A program made the translations under genes and the position numbers. DNA of 64,000 nucleotides, taken from the NCBI RefSeq assembly GCF_013167455.1, contig NZ_CP038328.1; one strand, given 5' to 3'. How positions within the stretch are numbered: the stretch's first letter is position 1; the number at the start of each line of letters is the position of its first letter. Below, in pieces: positions 47,558 through 47,769 of the stretch. The DNA comes from Escherichia coli O157:H7. Its GTDB lineage: Bacteria; Pseudomonadota; Gammaproteobacteria; Enterobacterales; Enterobacteriaceae. A model generated the notes under the pieces. It saw only the letters and a list, made by a program, of their open reading frames with translations, was not told the origin of the DNA and searched no databases.

Positions 47558-47564
47558 AAATACA

Positions 47565-47590
47565 GGGCTGGAATCATCCGGCCCTTTTTT
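47565..47590 (+). terminator. rho-independent terminator after bamC
   Basis: gggctgg…ccggccc followed by TTTTTT. Confidence 0.6.
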
Positions 47591-47600
47591 CTGATATGAT

Positions 47601-47616
47601 ACGCAAACGTGTGCGT
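47601..47616 (+). promoter_or_regulatory. PurR operator (pur box) upstream of purC
   Basis: ACGCAAACGTGTGCGT, near-perfect pur box about 155 bp upstream of the purC ATG. Confidence 0.7.
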
Positions 47617-47662
47617 CGGCAGGAAAACGCGATTTTAGCGGTAATTCGCACGAAATTTGTTT

Positions 47663-47717
47663 GTCGGACGTAGTTCGGATAAGGCGTTCACGCCGCATCC
47701 GACAAAACATCCGGCAC
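47663..47717. repeat. REP element in the bamC-purC spacer
   Basis: gtcggacgtagttcggataaggcgttcacgccgcatccgacaaaacatccggcac, REP-type imperfect palindrome. Confidence 0.65.
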
Positions 47718-47769
47718 ACCAGACAGCAAAAGATTTTAAAACGTTAATTCACACCCAGGAGTGATAAAG

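Follow-up and report, generated by a model that had tools for sequence, protein, structure and literature searches.

The bamC-purC spacer of Escherichia coli O157:H7: the known purC control region with a REP element in the purC leader, most likely a tolerated insertion

The 212 bp that separate bamC from purC in E. coli O157:H7 are the known purC control region of the species. The REP element in the purC leader is probably an old insertion, selfish or neutral, that is tolerated there and would influence purC output little, if at all. Resources published for K-12 already contain the bamC terminator, the purC transcription start and the PurR site, and the REP belongs to a canonical family, so the architecture of the spacer was already known. 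The evidence set out below covers the identity of the locus, its termination, initiation and repression signals, the history of the insertion and the roles that the REP could have.

The bamC-purC locus and its equivalence to K-12

In the window (the whole stretch of 64,000 nucleotides that was analysed) the spacer covers positions 47558-47769, as given by the list of open reading frames and the sequence. The upstream open reading frame (46520-47557) translates to BamC and is annotated as bamC in all matching E. coli genomes; dapA is located upstream of it and ypfJ downstream of purC, whose ATG is at 47770 and whose product shows 100% protein identity to PurC of the loci from E. albertii and E. 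coli. A query of 701 bases around the spacer has a match in 5425 of 5426 complete E. coli genomes, with identities of at least 98.4%, and two O157:H7 strains are 100% identical to this query among the matches listed. The remaining genome has zero match to the bamC-purC region, and a deletion, a misassembly or a mislabelled genome may be the cause. A minus-strand open reading frame of 83 aa (47468-47719) takes in the bamC stop and terminator together with the pur box and REP, and was rejected as spurious.

The counterpart of the spacer in MG1655 (2597619-2597830) is equal in length and differs from the window in a single base, at 47618, and therefore the maps published for K-12 transfer directly to the window; the conversion used was NC_000913.3 coordinate = 2597618 + (47770 - x), where x is the window position. 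The E. coli K-12 purC control region is thus the same locus, with the same operator and the same sequence string around the transcription start, and nothing of substance distinguishes the two. The features of the locus are collected in Table 1.

Table 1. Coordinates of the features of the bamC-purC locus in the window
Feature	Position	Strand	Remarks
bamC stop codon TAA	47555-47557	+	ORF 46520-47557 translates to BamC
bamC intrinsic terminator	47564-47590	+	9-bp hairpin 47564-47585, loop ATCA; T6 47585-47590
Extended -10 promoter TGaTATGAT (putative)	47592-47600	+	TG 47592-47593, hexamer TATGAT 47595-47600; read from sequence
PurR operator ACGCAAACGTGTGCGT	47601-47616		One mismatch to consensus; ChIP-chip site; spans -6 to +10
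purC transcription start (+1)	47607	+	TSS table of Kim 2012; leader 47607-47769, 163 nt
DR1, promoter-proximal copy of duplicated leader, CAGGAAAACGCGATTTTAGCGGTAATTCGCAC	47620-47651	+	Local alignment
REP block	47652-47719	+	One Y-type unit; Escherichia loci only; ~68 bp
DR2, ribosome-site-proximal copy of duplicated leader, CAGCAAAAGATTTTAAAACGTTAATTCACAC	47723-47754	+	Local alignment
purC Shine-Dalgarno AGGAG	47757-47761	+	8 nt before ATG; read from sequence
purC CDS (SAICAR synthetase, 237 aa)	47770-48483	+	ORF list; annotated purC in E. coli genomes

Termination of bamC and initiation of purC

The terminator scan found the stem arms AGGGCTGGA-ATCA-TCCGGCCCT at 47564-47585, with six G-C pairs out of nine; 7 nt separate the bamC stop from the stem. 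As RNA, the hairpin has a folding energy of -16.1 kcal/mol (z = -4.45), which none of 200 shuffles equals. This arrangement, a G+C-rich hairpin with a U-tract directly after it and downstream of a stop codon, is that of an intrinsic terminator. Term-seq in K-12 places strong 3' ends, classed as 'primary' for bamC, at NC_000913.3 2597798 and 2597799 (Adams 2021, PMC7815308, supplement); these positions, recorded in two conditions, convert to 47590 and 47589 of the window, inside the U-tract. In the alignment the hairpin and the T-tract are kept across genera, and the stem sequences vary between genera with the pairing still retained, as judged by eye. The dapA-bamC transcripts end at this strong intrinsic terminator.

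A 5' UTR of 163 nt has been reported for purC, with the start at 2595803 (minus strand, old coordinates) (Kim et al. 2012, PMC3415461, supplementary file 2). The 51-nt upstream string given for this start is identical to 47557-47607 of the window, which sets +1 at 47607; the assignment is based on one genome-wide K-12 dataset together with the promoter geometry. The sequence directly upstream resembles a sigma-70 extended -10 promoter, since it has a TGn motif and a near-consensus hexamer and the mapped start is exactly 7 nt away from the -10 element, within the 6-8 nt typical of these promoters. In the alignment, E. albertii, Citrobacter, Pseudocitrobacter and others have the string TGaTATGAT unchanged. 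From this promoter, which adjoins the U-tract of the terminator, the purC mRNA would start at 47607; a good -35 is absent, and the -35 position lies inside the terminator hairpin, whose presence there would explain the absence. A consensus promoter scan of 47300-48000 gave zero matches, the purC promoter being missed because the scan requires a -35.

Regarding translation, the GGAG core of the purC Shine-Dalgarno is conserved in all aligned genera and the region of the ribosome site is predicted by RNA folding to be unstructured. A candidate leader peptide of 25 codons (ATG 47596 to TAG 47673) was rejected, as its start is upstream of +1 and has no Shine-Dalgarno.

The PurR operator

The pur box shows 15 of 16 matches to the palindromic consensus ACGCAAACGTTTGCGT, and over the whole window chance would yield only 0.69 matches at a tolerance of up to 3 mismatches. 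The site identified by ChIP-chip for PurR at purC is the same 16-mer, given as its reverse complement, and the peak has a log2 enrichment of 2.08 with adenine versus 1.52 without it (Cho 2011, PMC3159470, Table 1); the published coordinates convert to exactly 47601-47616. The identical 16-mer is found upstream of purC in 24 of 80 related loci, and flipped in 2 more. Conserved in orthologous promoters and placed where it could interfere with the promoter of a purine gene, the element has the properties expected of an operator.

The purC start falls inside the pur box, and the central CpG of the box corresponds to the CG read at 47608-47609; this CpG step, at the dyad, is the site where the hinge helix of PurR is inserted in the crystal structure. 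Because the operator extends from -6 to +10, its geometry suggests a direct block of initiation by PurR, which, with hypoxanthine or guanine bound, would compete directly with RNA polymerase at the start site. The roadblock operators of purB and purR share with the purC operator the repressor and the operator consensus; however, they are located far downstream of +1 and block elongation, whereas the purC operator overlaps +1 and should act at initiation.

Two Enterobacter loci (L021 and L064; L numbers designate loci of the comparison set described below) carry the pur box ACGCACACGTTTGCGT, about 100 and 69 nt before purC, respectively. This sequence is precisely the E. coli box in reverse complement, so that in these loci the operator's asymmetric base has the opposite orientation with respect to the promoter.

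Other pur-box sites were observed in the window. A second strong one is AAGCAAACGTTTGCGA at 24207-24222, with 2 mismatches to the consensus, whose reverse complement TCGCAAACGTTTGCTT is the PurR site reported for purM-purN (Cho 2011, PMC3159470); the window therefore includes the purMN control region. The pur-box-like 16-mer ACGCGCGCGTTTGCGT (27091-27106) has 3 mismatches and is within the chance range.

The REP element in the purC leader

The core of the REP (47670-47703) reads in mRNA sense GTAG-TTCGGATAAGGCG-TTC-ACGCCGCATCCGAC, and it is enclosed by the outer arms TGTCGGA (47662-47668) and TCCGGCA (47710-47716), with which it forms an extended hairpin (47662-47716) that folds at -27.4 kcal/mol, z = -4.81. 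In the scan with the Y-type consensus, the core GTAGTTCGGATAAGGCGTTCACGCCGCATCCGAC had 3 mismatches (31 of 34 positions) and 0 matches appeared in 100 shuffles; it has the form of the Y type, an imperfect palindrome of about 35 bp with a GTAG tag at its 5' side. It is also a dispersed sequence, with a median of 4-6 matching places per E. coli genome, and in the two secondary matches inspected, both in records without the purC locus, the part repeated elsewhere was the core (47669/70-47704). Rfam gave a weak match to the REP325-derived naRNA4 at 47673-47717 (30.9 bits versus a gathering score of 59.5) and zero matches to riboswitch or leader families in the purC leader.

The element occupies about +56 to +110 of the purC mRNA, and it would be transcribed as a stable hairpin some 54 nt upstream of the unstructured ribosome site. 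No excess of structure over shuffles was found in the full purC leader (z = -0.88), nor in the leader outside the REP (z = +1.19 and -0.23), and on these folding predictions there is no case, apart from the REP, for a structured regulatory leader in purC.

The original prediction had combined a bamC terminator (47565-47590), a near-perfect PurR operator (47601-47616) and a REP palindrome (47663-47717) in a spacer of 212 bp, and all three are real, with coordinates right to within 1-2 bases. The terminator is borne out by the hairpin scan, the shuffles and the K-12 3' ends at 47589/47590; the operator, with its single mismatch, is identical to the K-12 ChIP-chip site of purC; and the REP agrees with the Y consensus except for 3 bases and folds as the hairpin described above. 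The REP had also been placed between the pur box and the purC start codon, within the 5' leader, a location that a transcription start downstream of the REP would have contradicted; as +1 is upstream of the element, the REP lies inside the mRNA, and no start downstream of it was seen in the data of Kim 2012. Absent from that prediction were the direct contact between promoter and terminator, the position of +1 within the pur box, the 101-bp insertion of the Escherichia loci to which the REP belongs, and the duplicated ancestral leader on both sides of it.

The Y-type REPs of E. coli are extragenic, GTAG-tagged imperfect palindromes of 34 nt repeated in the genomes, and the purC copy resembles them in all of this. 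The family is linked to the RAYT/TnpA_REP transposase. Unlike the usual Y-type REP, the purC copy is alone, lacks a BIME partner and has extra outer arms, and it is found in a 5' UTR after the promoter instead of in a 3' UTR or between convergent genes. A BIME, which consists of two or more units in alternating orientation with defined linker motifs between them, was considered and rejected because there is a single full REP unit; the other piece is a fragment of 9 nt, CATCCGGCA (47709-47717), in the same orientation, which resembles the 3' end of a REP unit. The REP325 of yjdM-yjdN is similar in being a transcribed REP hairpin between tandem genes; however, REP325 is an array of 12 hairpins in a 3' UTR or intercistronic position, whereas the purC REP is one hairpin that comes after the upstream gene's own terminator, in the leader of the downstream gene.

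On the minus strand, the terminator scan detected a weak terminator-like hairpin with a T-run at 47725-47708, formed from the outer right part of the REP block, and there is no converging gene to use it. Further Y-type REP units occur in the window at 27280-27313 and 52359-52392, both on the minus strand and each with 4 mismatches to the consensus.

An insertion restricted to Escherichia

The comparison set consisted of 80 purC loci from related genomes, Salmonella, E. fergusonii and Klebsiella pneumoniae being absent from it. Eighteen loci, belonging to Citrobacter, Enterobacter, Leclercia, Pseudocitrobacter, Phytobacter, Cedecea and Pluralibacter, have a spacer of 106-112 bp, and in these the same pur box is 65-69 nt before the ATG. 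A spacer of 211-212 bp was found only in Escherichia (the window, E. albertii L002 and the divergent E. coli L003), with the pur box at -168 or -169 from the ATG. Terminator, operator and ribosome site are in register in the alignment, as is the promoter in several genera, and Escherichia shows one insertion of 101 bp, composed of the REP block of about 68 bp (47652-47719) and a second copy of about 32 bp of the ancestral leader.

The REP block is absent from all 78 loci outside Escherichia and present in E. albertii and in 5425 of 5426 complete E. coli genomes, as counted with a query of 121 nt, more than half of it REP block, and a coverage of at least 80%. No E. coli strain lacking the REP was found among those 5426 genomes, and the comparison across genera was used instead.

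The two flanking copies of the leader segment, DR1 and DR2, have a 13-nt core in common. The local alignment between the left and the right of the REP scores 14, versus 6.4 +/- 1.3 for shuffles, of which 0 of 2000 reach 14; Citrobacter and others have one copy of the segment. Provided that transcription starts at the conserved place, the alignment suggests that the ancestral leader would be about 61 nt long, the leader of 163 nt in Escherichia owing its extra 101 nt to the REP block and the duplication.

The REP is most likely an old insertion that predates the E. coli-E. albertii split and lies in a permissive part of the leader. The permissiveness fits with the fact that other genera carry unrelated insertions there, ERIC-like elements and other hairpins among them. 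The ERIC/IRU elements of enterobacteria are also small palindromic repeats and use the same bamC-purC spacer elsewhere; however, they belong to a different repeat family, measure about 120 bp and are absent from the window.

The ERIC-like palindromic elements, of about 120 bp, were observed in the spacers of Cedecea neteri (L022), Klebsiella sp. BIGb0407 (L027) and Serratia plymuthica (L065), and probably also of Brenneria (L038), within the ~220-250 bp upstream of purC; they were identified by matches to the sequences of the primers ERIC2 and ERIC1R. No pur box within 3 mismatches was found in the 350 nt before purC in L022 and L027, which hints that the regulation of purC may differ in these two. 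Where E. coli has the REP in its leader, Kluyvera (L018) and Enterobacter sp. BIGb0383 (L021) carry independent extra segments, 30-65 bp ahead of the ribosome site of purC, with predicted hairpins and a common motif around ACGACG(N)CGAGTATC.

The duplication of about 32 bp flanking the REP is unlike the outcome expected of IS200/IS605-like single-strand transposition; the REPs mobilised by RAYT are assumed to follow a duplication-free route of this kind. It is quite unlikely, but conceivable, that the duplication records another route of REP insertion, such as a staggered break or a replication template switch, and/or that the REP is a genus-specific attenuator of purC independent of PurR.

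Sequence constraint on the leader

Between the window and E. albertii, the block of terminator, promoter and operator has 1 difference in 59 positions, and DR2 with the Shine-Dalgarno has 0 in 38, being invariant across Escherichia. The early leader that includes DR1 (47617-47651) has 7 differences in 35 positions, so that DR1 is diverging, and the insert has 10 in 80; at fourfold-degenerate sites the divergence is 0.16 in purC and 0.35 in bamC. The pattern of the segments is similar against L003. Within Escherichia, the REP block has thus diverged much more strongly than the sequences on either side, about as much as synonymous sites, and functional constraint would rest on the block of terminator, promoter and operator and on the ribosome-proximal copy of the leader.

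Inside the insert the REP core is the better preserved part (2/34 and 4/34 differences), which counts against a mere passenger; E. albertii, for its part, does not retain the outer stem. Changes in the REP stem of some E. coli strains break pairs without compensation (for instance AC to TT at 47690-47691), although these strains were chosen for their divergence in the segment, and only the figures between species are unbiased.

At fourfold sites, L003 (E. coli SCPM-O-B-8794) differs from the window by 0.30 in bamC versus 0.045 in purC. This suggests a possible recombination breakpoint in or near the 212-bp spacer, or a mosaic lineage, for L003.

Passenger or regulator

The evidence leans against a strong role of the REP, be it in mRNA stability or as the platform for protein binding that was first suggested: its divergence is about that of synonymous sites, the other genera sampled do without it, and the K-12 Term-seq tables contain no 3' end in the interior of 2590726-2597798 or at 2597660-2597719 (Adams 2021, PMC7815308), although a lack of peaks speaks only to abundant ends in the two conditions of growth. 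Near-fixation in E. coli and retention in E. albertii is, nevertheless, also what selection would produce. It is unlikely that in Escherichia the REP of the leader regulates purC in cis; it would be either a partial attenuator, hairpin-assisted or Rho-dependent as has been described for REP/BIME elements, or a determinant of leader processing or mRNA stability, in both cases lowering or tuning purC output relative to the genera that lack a REP. The element is indeed transcribed, its hairpin is very stable, and E. albertii and virtually every E. coli carry it; however, the hairpin is not maintained by compensatory changes, 3' ends at the REP are not listed in the Term-seq tables, and, being upstream of the open reading frame, it cannot shield purC from 3'-to-5' exonucleases. 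Moreover, it is not at the 5' terminus of the mRNA, where stem-loops are known to protect. REP325 is reported to act both as a terminator and as a decay block, and tandem gene pairs containing REPs to have a higher upstream/downstream expression ratio, which speaks in favour of regulation, but the same work reports no general effect of REPs on half-life and describes those other than REP325 as context-dependent (preprint 10.64898/2026.03.23.713779). Given the behaviour of REP325 and this dependence on context, a modest effect on purC is conceivable, though unlikely, and the leader REP could be at most a weak attenuator of transcription or a stabiliser of leader fragments.

It is hardly probable that the element serves the bamC side, as a second barrier to read-through or as a shield of dapA-bamC read-through RNA against 3' exonucleases. 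About 40% of the E. coli REPs lie between tandem genes and have been interpreted as 3'-UTR elements (preprint 10.64898/2026.03.23.713779), and no more than some 75-125 nt separate the purC copy from the bamC terminator upstream of it; however, the 3' end of bamC is at the intrinsic terminator, with a high Term-seq score and no second end listed at the REP, genera without the REP keep the same terminator, and, since the element follows the purC promoter, the RNA that crosses it should mostly be purC mRNA once this promoter is derepressed. A role at the DNA level is very unlikely; as a site for DNA gyrase, HU or DNA polymerase I, the REP would buffer supercoiling between the bamC and purC units or affect the access of PurR or RNA polymerase. 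The binding of gyrase and Pol I to REP/BIME sequences belongs to an older general literature and counts in favour of this role, but there is a single REP unit with no BIME alternation, sequence constraint on it is not evident between the window and E. albertii, and literature on binding of gyrase, HU or Pol I specific to the purC copy was not found. REP325, moreover, is reported to make no measurable contribution to nucleoid compaction (preprint 10.64898/2026.03.23.713779). Finally, it is highly improbable that purC is transcribed mainly from a second promoter downstream of the REP, such as CAGACA-18-GTTAAT (47720-47749), which would leave the REP usually outside the purC mRNA. A weak sigma-70 match (8/12) can be read there by eye, in the DR2 region, but the promoter scan reported nothing at this place, Kim 2012 lists for purC only the start with the 163-nt UTR, and a promoter placed there would be beyond the control of the pur box, although the purC promoter is bound by PurR and responds to adenine. 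The tolerated insertion thus remains the preferred reading.

Implications

As a textbook case of a promoter regulated by PurR, in the best-studied of all bacteria, the locus has little weight as a discovery. No discussion of a REP in the purC leader was found in the literature searched, and neither the flanking duplication, the restriction to Escherichia nor the recurrent use of the spacer by different repeats was found discussed; these three are small additions and do not amount to a new kind of system. On the other hand, the same operator, promoter and ribosome site are combined with a predicted leader of about 61 nt in the sister genera and with a REP leader of 163 nt in Escherichia, which constitutes a natural experiment, and a single deletion construct comparing both lengths could measure the effect of a REP in a 5' UTR, a setting left untreated in the REP studies compared here. 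A small clue to how and where such elements land comes from the duplication and from the recurrence of unrelated small repeats, REP and ERIC, in this spacer.
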